DNA of 64,000 nt, from NCBI GenBank assembly GCA_942492555.1, contig CALOEX010000004.1, forward strand, positions 11,875-75,874, read 5' to 3'. This DNA is from an uncultured Bacteroidota bacterium (lineage in GTDB: Bacteria > Bacteroidota > Bacteroidia > Cytophagales > Amoebophilaceae). The position numbers and the translations under genes were made by a program. Below the pieces are notes generated by a model. It was not told the origin of the DNA, ran no database searches, and was given only the letters and a program-made list of their open reading frames with translations. Positions 4,545-41,500 of this stretch are shown here, one piece after another (the stretch's first letter is position 1; each line of letters opens with the position of its first letter).

Positions 4545-4692
4545 GTGTGTCTTTGTTGATATTCTTATTACTCTTGCTGGGGTTGTTCATGATATTCAAG
4601 ATGAAAAATCGAAAAAAATAAAGTGTAATAAAAAACTTTTTACAGAATAAAGTCCACATAAGATGCCATGGTAATCTCATGCCTAGTTGAAA

Positions 4693-7062
4693 ATGATTGA
4701 AGATTTGGGTATTAGCGTTGTTTTCGGTAGTGTGATTCTTTACAGAAGTAAAGTGAGATTTACTGATGTCATCAATAATACTATTCTCATTGTATCTAGT
4801 ATTTCTGTTCCATTTCTAATGGGATTGTTAGGTTTGAAACCATCTAAAAAAGCATTTAAAACTAGTATATTGATTTTTTGGATTGTATTGTTGACGCTTT
4901 TTGTTTGTTATGTGTTTAATATTGCTCTTGCTAAAGATATTATCACATTCGTTAGAAGACATTTCTTTAAGGGAGAAGGATTAAAAAAAAGCTATTTTTA
5001 TCCATTGCGAGGTGCTTGGTTCATTGCCATTATCCTCCATGCCCTTACCTTTTTTGCCGTGCACTGGTGGGAAAACAAAGGATTTGTATGGGTGGACCAT
5101 GAAAGTGATGTATGGAAAGAATCAAAGCCCCACACAATTACAAGCTATTTCCAATGGTTTTTTCATCCTATCCGCTGGTGTATGCAAAAAGAAAACACCT
5201 ATGGCATTCGCCATTTTGCCACAGGTATTTTTACCTTAGGGTATTTTTGTCTTCCTTTTGTCTTAGAAGGCGTTGGTTCTTTTACACAGTTTGTAACGAT
5301 GTTACGTATGACACCTGTAGTACTTTCATTTGCCATTATGATCCGCGAACATTGGAAAAAAGAGTGGGAACACTACTTTAGTGGTTACTACTATCTCTTT
5401 ATGGGGTATGCCTGGTCCTTTGTCAGCGTGTTGAGTGTATTGCTTGTGCCACAAGGAAACGCTACATTGTGGCATTTGTCTATTGGTGTCCTCTTTTTAG
5501 GCATGATGGTAGACTGGCGTTCCTTTGTGGTGTTAGAACTGGTGGGTACAGTGGTTGCCTTGGTTGTACACTGGGTGATGACAGGGTTGTTATTGCCTAA
5601 TTTTGGCCATAATGGAGGGCTTCCTTTGCTGGTGAGCATGCTCTTACCTTGTATTGGTTTAACAGTATTCAATCGCTATAAAGACCAAATGCTAAAAAAT
5701 ACCCAACACCAACTCCATAAGATGATAGAAGCAAAAAATACGATGCTGATGACTTATGAATCTAGCCATGACCAAGTGTATAAAACATTGCATAAACATA
5801 GTAGTATGATGAGTGCTTTGCATGGGGTAATGTCTAGATTACAGTCTTCTCACGCAAAAGATGCTAAAATCATAGAAAGAGCTATGGATCACTTTTTTAA
5901 CATAGCACAACGCTCTAAGGAATTTTTGCGCCTTAATATCACAAGAAAGTCCATACATGAAATGTTGGATCATGCACGTACAAGTTTGTTGCGCCAAAAA
6001 ATAGAAGTGGATCGCATTGCTTTGCATATACATCCTGAGGTAGAAAGTATTGTGTGCGATGCTACACATATGGTAAATCTTTTGGTGAATGCAGTGTTGT
6101 GTATGCATGATATGGATGTTGCAGATGAAGGCAATATAGATTTGTGGATTGATCCTACAACGTTGTATTATGAGATGGAACCACCCTATGAAGGTAAGAC
6201 CATCCCAGCAATCCGCATTTTGTGTACTACAAACAAACAATATGTGCCAACTGTTGCGATAGATCCCTATACACCCTATGCAGGAGAAAACACTTGTTCC
6301 TTGTTGCATCACATGGGCATGGTAGAAAATAAACGCATTATAGGATCACACTATGGTTATATGAATATCGAGCGTACAGGTAAGCAAATTACACAAACCT
6401 ATGTAGTCCCTAGAGATTTAAAAGCAGTTCGTCCTACCATTGAAGATTTTGCCATTGAGGATCTAGAAGGTACTACCCCCCTGATAACACGAGAAGACCA
6501 AGCATTCTTAAAGGTTATTGCAGCAAAAAATATGGATGTAGATCGGGTTTCTTTGGCCTTGAGAGCATGTAAATACTGTCATGCAACCCAATATAGAAAA
6601 TCAGGAGAGCCTTATTATTTGCATCCAATGGAAGTAGCGAAGATTTTACTGGATTATACAGATGATGAAGAAGTGATCATCGCTGCGCTACTCCATGATA
6701 CAGTAGAAGATAGTCCTTATGCCTCTGGGCAAATCGCAGTAATTTTTGGGGAGAGGGTAGCAGGTATTGTCATGCGCGTATCCCATTTATACAACAAAAA
6801 AGAACGCCCTAAAATCAAAATGGAAAAAAGTGATACACTGGAGCGCCTTTTTGCTTCAGATCATAGAGAGTCATTACTAGTTAAAGTTGCTGACAGATTA
6901 CATAACATGCGTACACTCAAAGCTAAAGAAAGCGAGAAACAACATCGTATAGCAACGGAAACAATGCATTTTTTTGTGCCTCTTGCACGTCACTTAGGCT
7001 TACAAGAAATAGCGGAGGAACTTTTGGGGTTAAGTAAGCAAATTTTGGCATTGAAGCAGTAG
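4693..7062 (+). CDS. Multi-pass membrane protein fused to a degenerate histidine-kinase-like region and a C-terminal RelA/SpoT-type HD (ppGpp hydrolase-like) domain
   Basis: The N-terminal ~330 aa have many hydrophobic segments. The middle has an N-box-like CDATHMVNLLVNAVLCMHD and ...IIGSHYGYMNIERTGKQITQTYVVP. The C-terminus reads YRKSGEPYYLHPMEVAKILLD...AALLHDTVEDS...LLVKVADRLHNMRTL, the HD_4 signature. No synthetase domain is present. TTG 4687 is an alternative start. Confidence 0.85.
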   Translation: MIEDLGISVVFGSVILYRSKVRFTDVINNTILIVSSISVPFLMGLLGLKPSKKAFKTSILIFWIVLLTLFVCYVFNIALAKDIITFVRRHFFKGEGLKKSYFYPLRGAWFIAIILHALTFFAVHWWENKGFVWVDHESDVWKESKPHTITSYFQWFFHPIRWCMQKENTYGIRHFATGIFTLGYFCLPFVLEGVGSFTQFVTMLRMTPVVLSFAIMIREHWKKEWEHYFSGYYYLFMGYAWSFVSVLSVLLVPQGNATLWHLSIGVLFLGMMVDWRSFVVLELVGTVVALVVHWVMTGLLLPNFGHNGGLPLLVSMLLPCIGLTVFNRYKDQMLKNTQHQLHKMIEAKNTMLMTYESSHDQVYKTLHKHSSMMSALHGVMSRLQSSHAKDAKIIERAMDHFFNIAQRSKEFLRLNITRKSIHEMLDHARTSLLRQKIEVDRIALHIHPEVESIVCDATHMVNLLVNAVLCMHDMDVADEGNIDLWIDPTTLYYEMEPPYEGKTIPAIRILCTTNKQYVPTVAIDPYTPYAGENTCSLLHHMGMVENKRIIGSHYGYMNIERTGKQITQTYVVPRDLKAVRPTIEDFAIEDLEGTTPLITREDQAFLKVIAAKNMDVDRVSLALRACKYCHATQYRKSGEPYYLHPMEVAKILLDYTDDEEVIIAALLHDTVEDSPYASGQIAVIFGERVAGIVMRVSHLYNKKERPKIKMEKSDTLERLFASDHRESLLVKVADRLHNMRTLKAKESEKQHRIATETMHFFVPLARHLGLQEIAEELLGLSKQILALKQ

Positions 7063-7453
7063 CCCTTAACGAAAAAATGAAGCATTACCATGGCCTCAAA
7101 CTTCATCAACACAATCTATAAGAAAAATAAACGTTTTTATTTTCTTTTTTTCTTGCTATTATCTGTTTTTGCCCAGCAAACATCGGCAACCTCAATAACA
7201 AAAAGGGAAACGTCATCTTTTTGTGTAAAACGAGGGCAATACCCAACATTGTTTACTGGGTATTTTTGCCAGGTATTTTCCCCATACATTGCTACCTTCT
7301 ACAGGATTGACTTCTAGTAGCAACAACTCTCTGGTATTATCGTCTTTTACACACAATATATGACTTTTGCCAAACCTTGATAAAACCGTACATCCCATGT
7401 GCAAAAAGCGTCCATTACTGTGTAAGAATGATTGATTCTAGCAAGAAATTTTG

Positions 7454-7461
7454 TAACTTTG
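7454..7461 (+). promoter_or_regulatory. Candidate Bacteroidota -7 box (TAACTTTG = TAnnTTTG) upstream of 7498 CDS
   Basis: Matches the TAnnTTTG consensus 37 nt upstream of the ATG, with a TTG about 19 nt further upstream (7432-7434). Confidence 0.4.
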
Positions 7462-7497
7462 TTCGCAAAGTCATTTTTTATTTAAATTCTGTCTACT

Positions 7498-8310
7498 ATG
7501 TTAGAAAAAAAAGAAAGTATTTGGAAAAAAAGCCTGTGGGCAATGTGGGAGCAAAAAGAGTTGATAATAGTTGCTTTTTGTCTGATTTCTCCTTTCCTTT
7601 TACTTCTGAGCTACTTTTATGAGAGCTATGCACCTTTATTATTTTTTTCGCTTTCTTTCTGTCAGATTAAAATCACAAACTACTATAGCTACTATAGCTT
7701 AATTGCTTTTTGGTTGTTAACACCTGCTATTTTGTCCATGGTTTTTTCCTTAGTTACACTTTCTGTCAATCTTTATGTAGGCAAACACCAAATAACATTA
7801 GCAGATCAAATAAAAAAGTCTTGGTACGTTACTACTAGAGTTGTGGGAAGCCTATGGGCATGGTTCATGATAACATGGTTGTTCATTTTAATGGTAAAAC
7901 AGTTCGGAATTTTGTTTGATATTTCGCTTGTTTGGCAACAAATAGTAGATAAAATTGCTTTTTTCTTCTTGTATATAACAGTGGTTGAGCTTACACGCCA
8001 GTTTTCATTTGCTGTACACACCTATCTTTTTGGTAATGTTTCCTGGGAGACAGCACTTGCACAAAGTGCTAACATCACCAAGAAAAAAAAAGGGTATATA
8101 CGCATGTATGATATTTTTATTACATTTTTGTATCTTTTTGTACCTGGTTTAGTGTTGCTTTTTAGTAGTTTGGTAAAACTTCCCATCAATTATGTGCTTG
8201 CGAATGTCATGACCAAAATGGGTGTTTTGTTTTTTATGCATATTGCATTTGCTTTAGCCACAATTATACGCTCGTTTCTTTTTATAAAAATTAGCAAGAA
8301 AAACAGATAA
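7498..8310 (+). CDS. Hypothetical multi-pass membrane protein
   Basis: 270-aa ORF with repeated hydrophobic segments. No motif recognised. Confidence 0.6.
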   Translation: MLEKKESIWKKSLWAMWEQKELIIVAFCLISPFLLLLSYFYESYAPLLFFSLSFCQIKITNYYSYYSLIAFWLLTPAILSMVFSLVTLSVNLYVGKHQITLADQIKKSWYVTTRVVGSLWAWFMITWLFILMVKQFGILFDISLVWQQIVDKIAFFFLYITVVELTRQFSFAVHTYLFGNVSWETALAQSANITKKKKGYIRMYDIFITFLYLFVPGLVLLFSSLVKLPINYVLANVMTKMGVLFFMHIAFALATIIRSFLFIKISKKNR

Positions 8311-8351
8311 GCACACAAGCTTTCACCCTATAGACCCTGTTTCTATCCATT

Positions 8352-10367
8352 ATGAAATTTACATTACAATCGCCTTTTTCACCTAAAGGAGGACAACCAG
8401 AAGCCATCAAAACATTAGTAAAAAATATTAAATCAGGCATTCCTGCTCAGACACTACTAGGCGTAACAGGATCTGGCAAAACATTTACCATGGCAAATGT
8501 TATTGAGCAACTCAATTGCCCCACACTGATTTTAAGTCATAATAAAACGCTCGCAGCTCAGCTATATGCAGCATTTAAAGAATTTTTCCCTACAAATGCA
8601 ATTGAGTATTTTGTTTCTTACTATGACTACTACCAGCCAGAATCCTATAATCCGGTTACAGGCGTTTATATAGAAAAAGATTTGGCCATCAATGAAGAAA
8701 TTGAAAAAATGCGCTTGAATACTATGTTTTCACTCTTGTCAGGCCGTAGGGATGTAGTAGTTATTTCTTCCGTTTCCTGCATATATGGTTTAAGCAACCC
8801 AGAAAACTTCCGAGAGTATGTCCGTAATATTACCGTAGGCGATAAGATGTTCCGAGATGATTTCTTATTGCTCTTATCAGATTTTTTTTATAGTCGTAGC
8901 GAAATTAATTTTACACGTAGTACTTTCAGGGTTCGAGGAGATATAGTAGATCTCTACCTTGCCTATCAAGACAAAGTATATCGTTTTATATTTTTAGAAG
9001 ATAAGATTGAAACTATTCAAGAAATTGATCCTAAAACAGGCAGACGTATTGGAAAGCACAATGAGGTAACTATTTTCCCTGCTAATAACTTTATGGTCAA
9101 TAAAAGCCAATTGGAACGTGCTATTGACATTATTGAAAAAGAACTTCATGCTCAAATAAACTTTTTTTTAAAACAAGGCTGTGAAGAGGAAGCAAAAAGA
9201 CTAAAGGAAAGAACACATTTAGATATTGACATGATGAGAGAGCTAGGCTACTGCCCAGGTATTGAAAATTATTCCCGTTGTTTTGACAATCGAAAACCAG
9301 GTGAAAGACCCTATTGTTTATTAGATTATTTTCCTGAGGATTTTTTGATGATTATTGATGAGAGTCATGTAAGCATTCCCCAAATAGCCGCTATGGCAGG
9401 AGGAGATCGATCACGTAAAAATAATTTGATCGATCATGGTTTTCGCATACCTGCTGCGAGAGACAACCGTCCTCTTTCTTTGACTGAGTTTGAGTCTTTG
9501 TTACGTCAGGTTATTTACGTTAGTGCAACACCGGCAGATTATGAAATAAAAAAATCCGCAAGTGTTATTGTAGAACAATTAGTCCGTCCTACAGGGTTGT
9601 TAGATCCTGCTATTGAAGTGCATCCTACACCACATCAAATTGACCATTTGCAGGAGGCTATTCGAAAGTGTATTGCCCATAAAGAACGTGTGTTGATTAC
9701 AACACTCACAAAACGTATGGCAGAAGAATTGACAAAATATTTAGAGAGCATGTGCGTTCGTTGTCGTTATATTCATGCAGAAGTAAAAACTTTGGATAGA
9801 ATAACTATTTTAGAAGAGTTGCGGTTAGGTGTTTATGATGTGTTAGTTGGGGTTAACTTATTGAGGGAGGGACTAGATTTGCCTGAAGTTTCACTAGTGG
9901 CTATTCTTGATGCAGACAAAGAGGGTTTTTTAAGAAATTTTCGATCGCTGATACAAACGATTGGCAGGGCTGCACGCCATGTGAATGGTAAGGTGATTAT
10001 GTATGCAGATAAGATAACACCTTCTATGGAAAAAGCCATTCAAGAAACAGAGCGTCGTCGTAGCAGGCAGATACGTTACAATGAAATCCATGGCATTGTT
10101 CCACAGCCAGTGGTAAAAGCAAAAAATTATTTAGCCAAAACAGCATCAAACAATGAAGTTTATCAGATACCAGACTATATAGAGGATCTTGCCGAAGAGC
10201 CTGCGCCGATCTATCTTAGTATTGTTTCAATAAAAAAGGCTATTCGACAAAAAAAACGTGCTATGGAAAAAGCTGCGGATATGATGGACTACATAAAAGC
10301 ACAGGCGATACAAAAAGAAATACAACACTTGGAACATACTTTACAACAAAGAGAAAAAAAATCTTAG
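8352..10367 (+). CDS. uvrB: Excinuclease ABC subunit B
   Basis: LLGVTGSGKTFTMANVIEQ Walker A, DESHVSIPQ, helicase motifs, and a C-terminal UVR-like motif DYIKAQAIQKEIQHLE. Full length, 671 aa. Confidence 0.97.
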   Translation: MKFTLQSPFSPKGGQPEAIKTLVKNIKSGIPAQTLLGVTGSGKTFTMANVIEQLNCPTLILSHNKTLAAQLYAAFKEFFPTNAIEYFVSYYDYYQPESYNPVTGVYIEKDLAINEEIEKMRLNTMFSLLSGRRDVVVISSVSCIYGLSNPENFREYVRNITVGDKMFRDDFLLLLSDFFYSRSEINFTRSTFRVRGDIVDLYLAYQDKVYRFIFLEDKIETIQEIDPKTGRRIGKHNEVTIFPANNFMVNKSQLERAIDIIEKELHAQINFFLKQGCEEEAKRLKERTHLDIDMMRELGYCPGIENYSRCFDNRKPGERPYCLLDYFPEDFLMIIDESHVSIPQIAAMAGGDRSRKNNLIDHGFRIPAARDNRPLSLTEFESLLRQVIYVSATPADYEIKKSASVIVEQLVRPTGLLDPAIEVHPTPHQIDHLQEAIRKCIAHKERVLITTLTKRMAEELTKYLESMCVRCRYIHAEVKTLDRITILEELRLGVYDVLVGVNLLREGLDLPEVSLVAILDADKEGFLRNFRSLIQTIGRAARHVNGKVIMYADKITPSMEKAIQETERRRSRQIRYNEIHGIVPQPVVKAKNYLAKTASNNEVYQIPDYIEDLAEEPAPIYLSIVSIKKAIRQKKRAMEKAADMMDYIKAQAIQKEIQHLEHTLQQREKKS

Positions 10368-36869: not shown

Positions 36870-37568
36870 ATGGCAAAACTTACAAAAAATAAACGCCTAC
36901 AAAAAGAAAAGTGTGATGTTACAAAACCATATGCACTTGCAGAAGGCATAGAAATACTAAAAGAAACACATACTGCCAAATTTGACAGTTCTGTGGATAT
37001 TGCAATTAACTTAGGTATAGATACAAACAACCCTTTACAAATGATACGTAGCACAGTTGTGTTACCACATGGTACAGGAAAAGTGCCACGCGTACTCGTT
37101 ATATGTACACCAGAAAAAGAACAAGAAGCAAAAGAAGCAGGAGCAGACCATGTAGGTCTAGATGAGTACATCAAAAAGATAGAACAGGGATGGACAGACG
37201 TTGACGTCATAGTTGCCATGCCTAGCTTAATGGTAAAATTGGGGCAATTAGGGCGTATTTTAGGACCAACTGGACTCATGCCAAACGTCAAAACAGGAAC
37301 AGTTACCCAAGAGGTAGGCAATGCAGTCCGAGAAATCAAAGCAGGTAAAATAAACCTAAGAGCAGATAAAACAGGAGGTATTATACATGCAAGCATAGGG
37401 CGTATATCCTTTTCTAGCGAACAAATTCAAGAAAATGCCAAAGAAGTAGTCAATGCAGTTTTAGTAGCTAGACATAGCACTGTAAAAGGAAACTACCTGC
37501 AAAAAGTAAGCCTTACCACAACCATGGGCTGTGGTGTAGAAATCATGTTAAACACCATAACTTCATAA
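36870..37568 (+). CDS. rplA: 50S ribosomal protein L1
   Basis: FDSSVDIAINLGID, VVLPHGTGK, LGRILGPTGLMPNVKTGTV, and synteny. Confidence 0.95.
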   Translation: MAKLTKNKRLQKEKCDVTKPYALAEGIEILKETHTAKFDSSVDIAINLGIDTNNPLQMIRSTVVLPHGTGKVPRVLVICTPEKEQEAKEAGADHVGLDEYIKKIEQGWTDVDVIVAMPSLMVKLGQLGRILGPTGLMPNVKTGTVTQEVGNAVREIKAGKINLRADKTGGIIHASIGRISFSSEQIQENAKEVVNAVLVARHSTVKGNYLQKVSLTTTMGCGVEIMLNTITS

Positions 37569-37570
37569 CT

Positions 37571-38086
37571 ATGATTAAAAAAGAGAAACAAATCCTTTTG
37601 GAAACATTAAAGCCTCTTTTTGATGGGTGCAATCTCTATATTGTTGATTGTGAAGGATTGCAAGCAAATCAAATATACATACTAAGATACCACCTGTATC
37701 AGGCAAATATAAAATGCAAGCACGTTTCCAACGCCATTTTGCAAATACTATTTCAAAACAGTATCTATACCCCATTAAAAGATGTTTTACAAAAAAGTTC
37801 ACTGCTACTTTTTGCCAAGGAAGACCCAAAAAAACCAGCACAGGTAATCAGAGACTTTAGAAAAAAACACAAAACAGACAAGCCGATTTTCAAAGGTGCT
37901 TTAGCTTATGAAGACTTATATGTAGGTGAAAAAAGCTTTGAGGAACTCATGCATATCAAGTCTCGTGAAGAGCTTATTGGAGACATTATTAGATTGTTGC
38001 AATCACCTGCCCAGCAGCTTGTCAATGTTTTGGAAAGTACACAAAACAACATTTGTGGTGTGATAAAAACCATAGAAGAAAAATAA
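37571..38086 (+). CDS. rplJ: 50S ribosomal protein L10
   Basis: Size and position between rplA and rplL; L10-like N-terminal region. Confidence 0.85.
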   Translation: MIKKEKQILLETLKPLFDGCNLYIVDCEGLQANQIYILRYHLYQANIKCKHVSNAILQILFQNSIYTPLKDVLQKSSLLLFAKEDPKKPAQVIRDFRKKHKTDKPIFKGALAYEDLYVGEKSFEELMHIKSREELIGDIIRLLQSPAQQLVNVLESTQNNICGVIKTIEEK

Positions 38087-38113
38087 ATTTTTAACCCTTA
38101 TAACCATAATATA

Positions 38114-38509
38114 ATGAGTGACGCAAACGTAAATAAAATAAAAAAACAAGCCGAAGAACTTGTGAATCTTACCATAAAAGAAGCCAAACAGCTTATTGAC
38201 ATTCTTAAGAATGACTATGGTATAGAAGCTGCTACTCCTGTTGCAGTTGCAACAGCTGGTATGCCAACTGTGGCTGCAGAAGATAAACCAGAAGAAAAAA
38301 CCATTTTTGATATAGTATTAAAATCTGGAGGAGCATCCAAGCTTGGTGTTATCAAAATTGTTAAAAACCTCTTGGAGCTAGGGCTTAAAGAAGCTAAAGA
38401 AACCGTTGATAATGCCCCAGCAACACTTAAAGAAGGAGTTCCTAAAGAACAGGCTGAAAAAATCAAAAAAGAGCTTACCGATGCTGGTGCAGAAGTAGAG
38501 CTTAAATAA
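38114..38509 (+). CDS. rplL: 50S ribosomal protein L7/L12
   Basis: LVNLTIKEAKQLIDILKNDYGIE, Ala/Pro hinge, FDIVLKSGGASKLGVIKIVK...GLKEAKETVDNAPATLKEGV.KEQAEKIKKELTDAGAEVELK. Confidence 0.97.
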   Translation: MSDANVNKIKKQAEELVNLTIKEAKQLIDILKNDYGIEAATPVAVATAGMPTVAAEDKPEEKTIFDIVLKSGGASKLGVIKIVKNLLELGLKEAKETVDNAPATLKEGVPKEQAEKIKKELTDAGAEVELK

Positions 38510-38525
38510 ACTTCATTTTTTTGCT

Positions 38526-38559
38526 TTTTGCCACTATGTATAATGATGTAGTGGCAAAA
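38526..38559 (+). terminator. Perfect 10-bp hairpin in the rplL-rpoB spacer (possible attenuator)
   Basis: ttttgccact-(14 nt loop)-agtggcaaaa. It is followed by an A-run rather than a U-run, so intrinsic-terminator status is uncertain. An rplL-rpoB attenuator is known in E. coli. Confidence 0.3.
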
Positions 38560-38597
38560 AAACAAAAAGCTTTATCCGTATATTATTACAATAAGCA

Positions 38598-41500
38598 ATG
38601 GACATAACCAATAACAACAACAGAGATTCTTTGATTATAGATCCTCTAAAAAAAAACAGTGCTAAAAAAGATTTGAAAGAAAAAGAGATTAAAAACTCCA
38701 AAGAAAAACAAATCCAAAAAGTTAGTACCCAAAAAATAGAAAAGCAAAAAAAACAGGATAGTGCAATAGAAAGAAAAAAAGAAAGAATAAGCTTTTCAAA
38801 GTTACCCTTTGAAAGTGAATATCCAGATTTACTAGCTTTACAAGTAGAGTCTTTCAAAAAATTATTTGAGATAGGAGACACACGTTTGCAAAAAGAACCC
38901 AAGAGACTTTTTAAAATCTTTGAAGAACTCTTCCCTATTTCCGATACAAGAGGAGATCTCAATTTAACCTTTTTAGGATACACCATTTTACCCCCTTGCT
39001 ACACACCCAATGAATGTCTTGAATTAGGCACAACATATGATGTTCCCCTTAAAGCTCATTTTAGGTTAACATGCAAAGATGGAGGGACTACACGCGTAGT
39101 AGAAGAAGAAGTATACCTATTAAATATCCCATACATGACCCCTAAGGGATCCTTTATTTTCAGAGGTACAGAAATTACCGTTGTATCACAACTAGAACGA
39201 TCCCCAGGTGTTTTCTTTTCACAAACAAAACACACAACAGGCGTAAATCTATACACTGCCAAAATCATCCCCGCAATAGGTACATGGAATGAATTCTTCG
39301 TTGACATGTACAATGTAATGCATGCCTATTTAGACCGAAGGAAAAAAATACCCGTAACACTTTTACTACGTGCCATAGGATATAGTAGCGACAAAGAAAT
39401 ATTACAACTTTTTGACCTAGCAGAAGAAGTCAATGTCAATAAAGTCACATTACAAAAATACAAAGGACGCACACTAGCAGGAAAAGTACTCAGAACTTGG
39501 AATGAAGAATACATCGATGTCGAAACAGATGAAGTAGTAACCATGCCACGTCACGAAGTAGTTTTAGACCGCAATACCATCCTAAACGATGAAGCTATAG
39601 AAAAAATTCTAGCATCAGGACAAAGAAAAATCATGTTATTAAAAGCAGACATAACTGAACATGACTTTTTCTTCATCTACACCACATTACAAGAAGATCC
39701 CACCAATTCAGAAAAAGAAGCTATTGAGTACATATACTGTCAATTCCGCAATTCTACACCAGGTGATGAAATAGTTACAAGAGAATTCGTAAAACAAATT
39801 CTCTTTAGTCCAAAGCGTTCTTTCCTAGGCCACATAGGTCGGCACTCACTCAACAAAAAACTAGGATATGAAACACCTAGAGAAGACTTTTTGCTCACAG
39901 AAGAAGACATTGTAGCCACCATTAAAGTCTTTCCAGACCTCATGAAAGGCAAACGAGCAACAGAAGATCTAGACAGCTTAGTAAACCGAATCGTACTTTT
40001 ATCTGGAGATCTTATATACCTAGCATTAGAACGAGGCGTAAAAGCCGCTGTACACTATGCACGAGAAACAATCAACAACCTTAGCGACGATCTTCCCACA
40101 CCCTTTGATATCATTAGTGGAAGCTATATAACATCAGTACTATCCACCTTCTTCAATATTGAGCCAAATGCACAGTATAAAGATCAAACCAATGCCCTTA
40201 GTGAGCTAGAACATAGCAGACGTATTACAAAAATAGGAAAAAACCTCACACAAGAAAGAGCTGGTATTGACGTGCGAGACGTACATCCTACACATTACGG
40301 TCGCCTATGTCCCATATCAACACCAGAAGGTGCCAACATTGGTCTTATCAGTCACTTTGCTCTCAATACACGCGTCAACGAACTAGGCTTTTTAGAAGCC
40401 CCATACAAAAAAGTAGACAACAAAAAAATCAAAATAGACCAAACAGTATACTTAACAGCAGAAGAAGAAGAAAAAAAATTAATTGCACAATATACATTAG
40501 CTGTTAACAAAGAAGGATTAATAACAGAAAATAGCATCATTGCCAGAGATTCAAAAGGAGAATTCCACCGAACATCACCTGAAAAAGTAGATTATATAGA
40601 CGTTCGTAGCGACATGGCATTTTCAGCAGCAGCCTCCTTAATACCTTTTATTTCCAATACAGAACCAGGACGTGCAACAGGAGGAGTAAACATGCAACGC
40701 CAAGCAGTTCCTCTATTGACACAACAAGCACCCATTGTAGGTACTGGGCAAGAAAAACGCATTGCAAAAGACTCCTGTGTCCTCATTGTAGCAGAAGAAG
40801 ATGGGATAGTACACTATGTAGATGCCAATAAAATCATCATCAAAGAACATGTCCCCAAAGAATTTGAAGAATTATTATATGAGCCACCCTTCAAAACCTA
40901 TCATTTAACACGTTTACAACCCACAAACCAAGGCATTGCCATTATACATAAACCCATTGTCTCCAAGGGACAAAAAATCAACAAAGGAGATTTTCTGTGC
41001 GAAGGCTACACCATTAAAGACGGAGAGCTAGCACTCGGGCAAAATTTACGTGTTGCCATCGCTGCTTGGGGAGGCTTTAACTTCGAAGATAGTATTGTAG
41101 TATCAGAAAGAGTAGTAAAAGAAGACCTGCTAACATCCATACACATCGAAGAATTCAGCGTAGACCTATTCAATACAAAATTAGGATCTGAAGAATTCAC
41201 ATCAGACATTCCAGGCGTTAGTGAACAAGCACTAAAAATATTAGATGAAAACGGTATTGTAAAACTTGGTACAGAAATAAAAGAAGGAGATATCCTCGTT
41301 GGAAAAATCACCCCACAAAGCAATGAAACACCATCTCCAGAAGCAAAGTTAATAGCGGCTATCTTCGGAGAAACCGCTAGCAATGTAAGAGACACCTCTT
41401 TCCGAGCACCCTTTGCTTGTAAAGGAACCGTTATTGGTACCAAAATACTTTATGGACAACAAGTACGCCAACAAAAATCAAAAGATATAGAAAAACAAAT

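Follow-up and report, generated by a model that had tools for sequence, protein, structure and literature searches.

A front-truncated member of a putative transporter-type sensor family with a Rel/SpoT-type hydrolase domain in the Amoebophilaceae

How obligate intracellular bacteria, whose regulatory repertoires are minimal, read the metabolic state of their host is an open question, and a gene of an uncultured, intracellular Amoebophilaceae bacterium (Cytophagales, Bacteroidota) bears on it. The window analyzed here is a 64,000-nucleotide (nt) stretch of this bacterium's genome (GenBank assembly GCA_942492555.1, contig CALOEX010000004.1, positions 11,875 to 75,874 of the forward strand). On its plus strand, an uninterrupted open reading frame (ORF) starts at TTG 4687 or ATG 4693 and ends at 7062, with the stop codon at 7060-7062, and encodes 791 or 789 amino acids. 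The original prediction, made from the letters of the window, described the product as a membrane sensor joined to a degenerate histidine-kinase-like module and a SpoT-type HD hydrolase domain. Our best explanation, which we hold with moderate confidence, is that the ORF is a front-truncated member of an Amoebophilaceae-specific, multicopy family of transporter-type sensors that gate hydrolysis of the alarmone (p)ppGpp. In full-length members of ~1,150 amino acids, the predicted order is an SLC5/SSF domain, a membrane module of ~7 helices, a cytoplasmic pseudo-histidine-kinase, and a Rel/SpoT-type HD domain with a complete active site. For the window itself the message is more modest: the gene (4687..7062, plus strand) is a 5'-truncated paralog within this SSF/membrane module/pseudokinase/HD_4 family.

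Domains of the encoded protein

The peptides NLLVNAV, SHYGYMNIERTGKQITQTYVVP, HPMEVAKILLD, LLHDTVED, and VADRLHNM, which the original prediction had singled out, all lie in the window ORF. A scan against Pfam and NCBIfam detected a single domain type, HD_4/HD, at residues 622-770 (6556..7002, plus strand), with an E value of 3e-29 and a score of 102 bits against a curated cutoff of 27.2. The RelA/SpoT model TIGR00691 was matched over positions 1-168 of its 687, and the same libraries gave no match to synthetase, TGS, ACT, HisKA, or HATPase_c domains, in agreement with the claim that the hydrolase domain is accompanied by no synthetase, TGS, or ACT domain. Eight catalytic or metal-binding residues (R635, H644, H668, D669, E672, D673, D734, and N738) are intact; they align to Rel structures and are invariant in a family alignment of 10 sequences, so that careful alignment reveals no lost catalytic residue and the assignment to the RelA/SpoT HD type stands.

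The closest PDB sequences to the HD domain are the hydrolase domains of long Rel/SpoT proteins (E = 2e-32 to 2e-27), namely, 7oiw (2e-32), Bacillus subtilis Rel (8acu/6yxa), Acinetobacter baumannii SpoT (7qpr), and RelSeq (1vj7, 2e-27). The motifs RKSGEPY..HP, LLHD..ED, and ADRLHNMRT line up between the HD domain and these solved structures; the Mesh1-type small hydrolases are far more remote in the same comparison (E~1e-12). A census of 126 complete HD regions, drawn from the paralogs of this genome, relatives from other genera, and cluster representatives, found all eight residues kept in 95, including every copy of the window's genome. The remaining regions are variously degenerate, and about a quarter of the family thus lacks some or all of the catalytic residues. 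L102, P0080, and P0031 are examples in which catalytic residues have been replaced and the domain has been kept, with, e.g., SYHEKSDR standing for RHHDEDDN.

Neither for the window protein nor for about a dozen family proteins scanned did Pfam or NCBIfam report a kinase model in the region between the membrane part and the HD domain. In an AlphaFold2 model of residues 328-618, an alpha/beta sandwich comes after a long helical hairpin; the mean predicted local distance difference test (pLDDT) score is 70.8, with values of 85-94 in the core. When this model was compared with the PDB using Foldseek, all of the top 50 matches were kinase DHp-CA modules, and 180 matches had E values of ≤1e-3; RetS (6dk7, 4e-9) was the best match, followed by ZraS, HK853, DivL, CckA, and NtrB. 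The hairpin (residues 329-412, 5677..5928, plus strand) is DHp-like and lacks a conserved phospho-acceptor histidine: no conserved histidine column was found in the DHp helix across the 18 family members in our alignment of the middle region (alignment A2). The CA-like alpha/beta domain that follows, a putative pseudo-ATPase (residues 416-577, 5938..6423, plus strand), carries the N-box remnant NLLVNAV and lacks the G1 and G2 glycine motifs.

A motif census across the same 18 sequences argues against kinase catalysis. Neither DxGxG nor GxGxG occurs in the window protein, and each is present in 1 of the 18 family sequences, compared with 8-9 of 13 real kinases; taken together, the G1, G2, and H-box motifs are found in 1-2 of 18 and 7-9 of 13, respectively. 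In glycine content, the CA-like domain reaches about half the level of real kinases. Motifs conserved in this domain are ALR.TITT and N.RI.KAHYGY...YV.P, and the family layout in A2 reads CD...LL.N(A/S), then ALR.TITT, then N.RI.KAHYGY...YV.P..L..VRP. Since the predicted fold is kinase-like and the kinase motifs are gone, the middle region is, as modeled, a pseudokinase, i.e., a histidine-kinase DHp-CA fold without H, G1, and G2 boxes. The degenerate kinase-like module that retains NLLVNAV and has no DxGxG, as proposed from the letters, is therefore supported by both the structure prediction and the motif census.

The first ~330 residues are polytopic, as had been proposed. Hydropathy analysis gave eight peaks there (a ninth lies at residues 455-473), and a confident AlphaFold2 model (residues 1-338; 27 sequences; pLDDT of 86.4) contains ~10 helices and a small beta-hairpin loop. 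Residues 1-75 (4693..4917, plus strand) correspond to the last helices of an SLC5/SSF domain and align to residues ~376-450 of full-length paralogs; these helices are all that the window protein keeps of that N-terminal domain. Residues ~100-330 (4990..5682, plus strand) form a family-specific membrane module of ~7 helices with a conserved loop, NKGF ... P.RW. This post-SSF module has no relative among solved structures (Foldseek against the PDB, best E = 1) and corresponds to no Pfam family; the proteins described here have it in common with the clade's real SSF-histidine kinases. A basic stretch (consensus LLFARRK/RRKQ) is conserved after the last membrane helix and suggests, by the positive-inside rule, that the C-terminal tail is cytoplasmic.

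The paralog family and the missing SSF domain

The assembly that contains the window (G000) measures 0.95 Mb in 15 contigs, with 36% G+C and 92% completeness. An inventory of its RelA/SpoT homolog (RSH) synthetases yielded a single enzyme, a canonical long RSH of 716 amino acids (Rel, C3:337717-339867) with an HD_4 domain and the only synthetase domain of the genome. Besides Rel there are 11 further HD_4 loci, with ten full-length copies, one split copy, and the window copy among the paralogs. The full-length paralogs, of 1,142-1,172 amino acids, lie in tandem arrays on contigs C14, C9, and C3; the split copy, also in a tandem array (C14:45921-49435), consists of ORFs of 846 and 284 amino acids and reflects a frameshift or a stop. 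Of a twelfth paralog, just an SSF fragment is left, where contig C12 ends. Together the family fills ~4% of the genome.

Full-length members open with an SLC5/SSF domain (Pfam SSF; TIGR00813) whose best subfamily match, a weak one, is PutP. This domain of ~375 amino acids is present in all 10 full-length paralogs. Six close paralogs (C14:42204-56899; C9:3986-11224, 36926-40435; loci L014, L015) differ strongly in divergence along their length: the SSF domain has a synonymous divergence (dS) of 0.88 and a ratio of nonsynonymous to synonymous divergence (dN/dS) of 0.23, and the C-terminal ~700 residues have a dS of 0.05. An old SSF domain on a near-identical output module reflects concerted evolution or gene conversion of the output module, with sensor differences being selectively maintained.

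In comparison with its full-length paralogs, the window protein aligns to residues ~376-1170 at 48-50% identity, and the first ~375 residues are missing. SSF-core remnants were searched for upstream of the window ORF, and none were found. A contig of an independent assembly (L134; Logan, run ERR9669565) is 99.8% identical to window positions 4705-8554, and only two substitutions, both synonymous third-position changes, separate the two over the shared 3.85 kb. The indels of L134 all fall in homopolymer runs and affect neighboring genes likewise, and they thus look like sequencing noise; the candidate reading of the L134 version as a frameshifted pseudogene was rejected on these grounds. Nucleotides 1-251 of L134 differ from the window; they code for a stretch of SSF (...SFFLLAMIAIVMSTVDSFLNALAIMWVNDF...) sharing 59% identity with paralog residues 290-356. 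Allowing one further homopolymer frameshift, this sequence continues in frame into LGISVVFGSVILYRSK of the window ORF, collinear with the paralogs. The SSF piece is found nowhere in the whole window assembly, nor in the six closest genomes save for 73-74% matches to paralogs.

In the window, the SSF-coding sequence is replaced by upstream sequence that is unique in the genome (4545..4704, no strand assigned). The breakpoint at 4704/4705 sits 12-18 nt past the new start codon (in-frame ATG or TTG), and an exact-match scan of metagenome contigs for the 4705 breakpoint gave nothing. Because the nearly identical L134 keeps SSF sequence directly upstream of 4705, the truncation must be either very recent or an assembly artifact; judged from these alignments, the window form is a derived 5' truncation that arose by a very recent deletion or a mis-join. 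The 330-residue membrane part consequently cannot be taken as the native sensor, as the original prediction had it, given that an SSF domain is present in all of the full-length paralogs and upstream in L134. Family representatives that lack the SSF domain and start with Met do occur, at least P0020 (827 amino acids) and P0080 (835 amino acids). Should the truncation prove real and the gene be expressed, the window copy would act as a hydrolase that is free of regulation or regulated in another way; failing that, it would be a very recent remnant, or an assembly artifact, of a full-length gene.

Two further kinds of signaling gene in this genome deserve mention. A 456-amino-acid SSF-less membrane protein (C14:57062-58432, plus strand) with a weak HATPase_c match has the family's membrane module, including an NPIRW loop; it is the sole kinase-like gene in the genome and stands head-to-head with the four-copy tandem array. 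Single-domain receiver proteins number just two (C14:135916 and C4:104735).

Distribution and relation to working kinases and Rel

Searches with the non-HD part of the window protein (residues 1-615) gave 4-16 loci in each of 20 genomes of the same taxonomic family, out of 24 others examined (0.6-2.7 Mb), and no locus in the 16 genomes searched from the order's other families. Relatives of ~1,150 amino acids from other genera carry both SSF and HD_4 in 8 of 8 cases, and among GTDB species representatives, the sole named match to the full architecture is an Amoebophilaceae metagenome-assembled genome. By these sequence searches, the family is confined to the Amoebophilaceae and has expanded there. 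The architecture is thus neither stand-alone nor singular, with ~12 copies in this genome and expansion across the Amoebophilaceae. In another genome of the same family, G041, 16 HD_4 matches were counted. The only other genome of the genus, G001 (0.6 Mb, 87% complete), has several SSF-kinase matches and one HD_4 match, in Rel; its lack of pseudokinase-HD copies suggests rapid turnover or incompleteness.

Proteins of ~930-950 amino acids from the same clade, likewise multicopy, combine the same SSF and membrane modules with a bona fide HATPase_c domain and have H, N, G1, F, and G2 boxes. Genomes G005, G011, and G014 have 13-17 matches to such real SSF-histidine kinases and just 1-2 HD_4 matches, and genomes G004, G012, G020, and G023 have 13-17 HD_4 matches and few real kinases. 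Across the family-level genomes, the kinase and HD outputs of the shared sensor module are thus roughly complementary. Shared modules and complementary outputs together support the descent of the pseudokinase-HD proteins from SSF-kinases.

A RelA_SpoT synthetase domain was detected in 18 of the 19 family-level genomes that have at least 2 HD_4 matches, the exception being 84% complete; two family-level genomes carry neither HD_4 nor a synthetase domain. Co-occurrence with Rel and the intact active site support the view that the family hydrolyzes (p)ppGpp made by the cell itself. In eight genomes (G006, G013, G015, G016, G020, G021, G023, and G041), the only synthetase-bearing ORF is just ~375-435 amino acids long, which suggests that several relatives have a Rel reduced to its N-terminal domains, without TGS and ACT. 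In a tree of HD domains, the family is monophyletic (99/85), and the Rel of the window's genome groups with Bacteroidota Rel. The nearest neighbor of the family is a 205-amino-acid HD-only protein from Rickettsiaceae, and the two together are split from 79 long RSHs with support of 100/98; just one rickSpo-type sequence was included, and the Rickettsiaceae split carries a warning of long-branch attraction.

Proposed mechanism, rivals, and known systems

In the mechanism that we consider best, the family proteins would be dimeric one-component "transceptors." A host-derived solute bound or transported by the SSF domain would serve as the input signal, which would travel from the SSF domain across the membrane module and along the DHp-like coiled coil until it switches the HD domain, and the switched HD domain would then degrade (p)ppGpp made by Rel. 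Because different SSF domains sit on a homogenized output module, the paralogs may serve as a set of sensors, each tuned to another solute. The original proposal that an envelope signal is coupled directly to alarmone hydrolysis survives in part: coupling through the membrane is the best reading of the predicted architecture, and the likely input is a solute that the transporter carries, not an envelope signal, since the 330-residue membrane part is what remains after loss of the SSF domain. A wider proposal, which we put forward tentatively and regard as possible rather than probable, is that alarmone control in the Amoebophilaceae has moved from the ribosome to the membrane. According to this proposal, 10-16 SLC5-type transceptors, each specific for its own solute, gate a shared pseudokinase-coupled hydrolase, nutrients from the host directly lower (p)ppGpp, and the output module arose from SSF-kinases by kinase death and gain of a SpoT domain. 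The reduction of Rel to its N-terminal domains in several relatives fits such a shift, and the SpoT domain of the family has possibly been exchanged with Rickettsiales.

Several observations weigh against solute-gated hydrolysis by a kinase-derived family. The direction of signaling, from solute to HD domain, is inferred only from analogy with CbrA and CrbS (PMC7918813). The proposed SSF sensor domain is missing from the window copy, and because this copy is near-identical to the SSF-containing L134 version, its intact frame is uninformative on function. HD catalysis is, by the residue census, dispensable for some family copies: with ~25% of members having lost catalytic residues, it cannot be needed by every copy. 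As for the kinase origin, the A2 profile ranked histidine kinases first and third among PDB sequences, in the right register, at sub-significant E values of 0.12 and 0.22, and hhalign placed the family profile collinear with real kinases of the same clade over 246 columns (E = 1e-3) at a profile-profile probability of just 21%. A search of 1.84 billion cluster representatives with the pseudokinase profile returned 290 proteins, every one of family type, and retrieved no canonical kinase. Kinase homology is therefore beyond proof by hidden Markov models alone, and given the low profile-profile probability and the failure to retrieve a canonical kinase, the case for a kinase origin leans mostly on the fold prediction and on the sensor module that the family shares with real kinases.

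To these points must be added a serious rival for the family as a whole, favored by the catalytically dead copies, in which the signal would run in reverse: the pseudokinase-HD tail would bind the alarmone and tune the SSF transporter to (p)ppGpp, with hydrolysis at most resetting the switch. Retention of the domain in the quarter of members that are catalytically degenerate would make sense on this account, as would purifying selection on the SSF domains, which is what working transporters would experience; moreover, the SSS domain of CbrA transports histidine in its own right, without depending on the kinase (PMC7918813). We nevertheless judge reverse signaling unlikely. The complete set of catalytic residues, among them some that only the chemistry requires, persists in 75% of members and in all 11 HD copies of the genome, and because SSF-less forms retain the tail, a tail that served solely to regulate the transporter would make little sense. 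Less likely again is a substrate other than (p)ppGpp, e.g., (p)ppApp, pGpp, or, as for Mesh1-type enzymes, NADPH. Small alarmone hydrolases are documented to be promiscuous (PMC9765508), and one 96% complete genome (G009) has a family member and no detectable synthetase, but the HD domain is far nearer to long Rel/SpoT (E~1e-30) than to Mesh1, and Rel accompanies the family in all but one of the 19 genomes. That the middle region is a working, divergent histidine kinase which phosphorylates one of the genome's two response regulators appears extremely improbable. The DHp-CA fold and the two single-domain receiver proteins are what such a kinase would need; however, no DHp histidine is conserved, DxGxG and GxGxG are each missing from 17 of 18 sequences, glycine is reduced to about half, and a dozen or so family proteins gave no Pfam or NCBIfam kinase match. 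An active kinase was accordingly rejected on the motif census, in which H, G1, and G2 show no conservation.

A different doubt concerns the window copy alone. It is possible, though less likely than not, that this copy is not functional as it is, either because the contig was mis-joined at ~4705 or because the 5' third of the gene was very recently deleted along with its promoter. The L134 contig, with its in-frame SSF sequence upstream of the breakpoint that is missing from the whole assembly, speaks for this possibility; a difference of only two synonymous substitutions leaves no time for decay, and the genome contains one split paralog and one fragment besides. On the other hand, the 400 nt upstream in the window are unique and continuous with the neighboring gene, which makes a repeat-induced mis-join unlikely, and an in-frame ATG or TTG is available 12-18 nt before the breakpoint. 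SSF-less forms also exist elsewhere, as the Met-start proteins P0020 and P0080 and as the 456-amino-acid kinase of this genome with the same membrane module.

If the preferred reading, hydrolysis of (p)ppGpp gated by transporter-type sensors, is correct, the family puts the enzyme that clears the central starvation signal of bacteria behind a transporter-type sensor, with a pseudokinase that resembles a repurposed transmission device in between. A nutrient would then act on (p)ppGpp by a one-component route that needs neither the ribosome nor two-component phosphotransfer, and the family would be a natural case of a kinase scaffold rewired to control another enzyme.

Parts of this picture have been on record. 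Atkinson et al. described the expansion of rickSpo, a hydrolase-only RSH group, in 2011 (PMC3153485), and Jimmy et al. placed RickSpo among the groups derived from long RSHs in 2020 (PMC7229694). For Amoebophilus, Brown et al. mentioned in 2018 a total of 18 homologs of "spoT ... /sodium glucose cotransporter," and for Cardinium strains 2-7 (PMC6232779). The words "transmembrane" and "symporter" do not occur in the RSH classification papers PMC3153485 and PMC7229694, a 2025 Cardinium review mentions neither SpoT, ppGpp, symporters, nor kinases, and our search found no publication that describes the pseudokinase or the extra membrane module or that joins alarmone hydrolase, transmembrane, and symporter. 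In the RSH literature these proteins appear only as "small" hydrolases, and the architecture was thereby overlooked. The original description of the architecture as unusual relative to long RSHs and small alarmone hydrolases is therefore right in that it differs from both, whereas the expansion had already been reported (PMC3153485, PMC6232779). The existence and expansion of the family are thus on record, and the pseudokinase and the extra membrane module are, as far as our search went, described here for the first time.

Among known systems, rickSpo shares with the family a Rel/SpoT-type HD domain that comes without a synthetase and has undergone massive duplication in bacteria of obligate intracellular life. 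The papers on RickSpo describe small hydrolases of a single domain and mention no SSF, extra transmembrane, or pseudokinase modules, whereas here the HD domain makes up the C-terminal ~170 residues of a membrane protein of 790-1,170 amino acids. CbrA, CrbS/MxtR, and RpuS (PMC7918813, PMC9100948) have an N-terminal SLC5/SSS domain and a cytoplasmic DHp-CA region and follow the same "transceptor" logic; the family differs from them in the extra ~7-helix module after the SSF domain, in its dead kinase, and in an output that would be alarmone hydrolysis, not phosphotransfer to a response regulator. The position of STAC/PAS is occupied in the family by extra transmembrane helices, and the window protein and 8 full-length relatives gave no Pfam match to STAC or PAS at E ≤ 0.1, from a library that may lack a STAC model.

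Closer to home, the Amoebophilaceae SSF-HATPase_c kinases L110 (946 amino acids) and L113 (931 amino acids) have the SSF domain and the membrane module in common with the family, with 38-44% identity in the last helices, but their H, N, G1, F, and G2 boxes are preserved and they lack an HD domain. RetS and DivL are kinase folds that signal without normal autophosphorylation, via protein-protein contacts with other two-component proteins. Both are among the best structural matches of the middle region (6dk7 and 4q20), although they have no sequence relationship to the family beyond the fold and are not fused to a hydrolase. Finally, the long RSHs Rel and SpoT are the closest sequence relatives of the hydrolase domain and possess the identical set of catalytic motifs. 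The family lacks their SYNTH, TGS, helical, ZFD/CC, and ACT/RRM domains, and the regulation that long RSHs receive from the ribosome and the synthetase domain is replaced in it by a front end composed of a membrane sensor and a putative pseudokinase.

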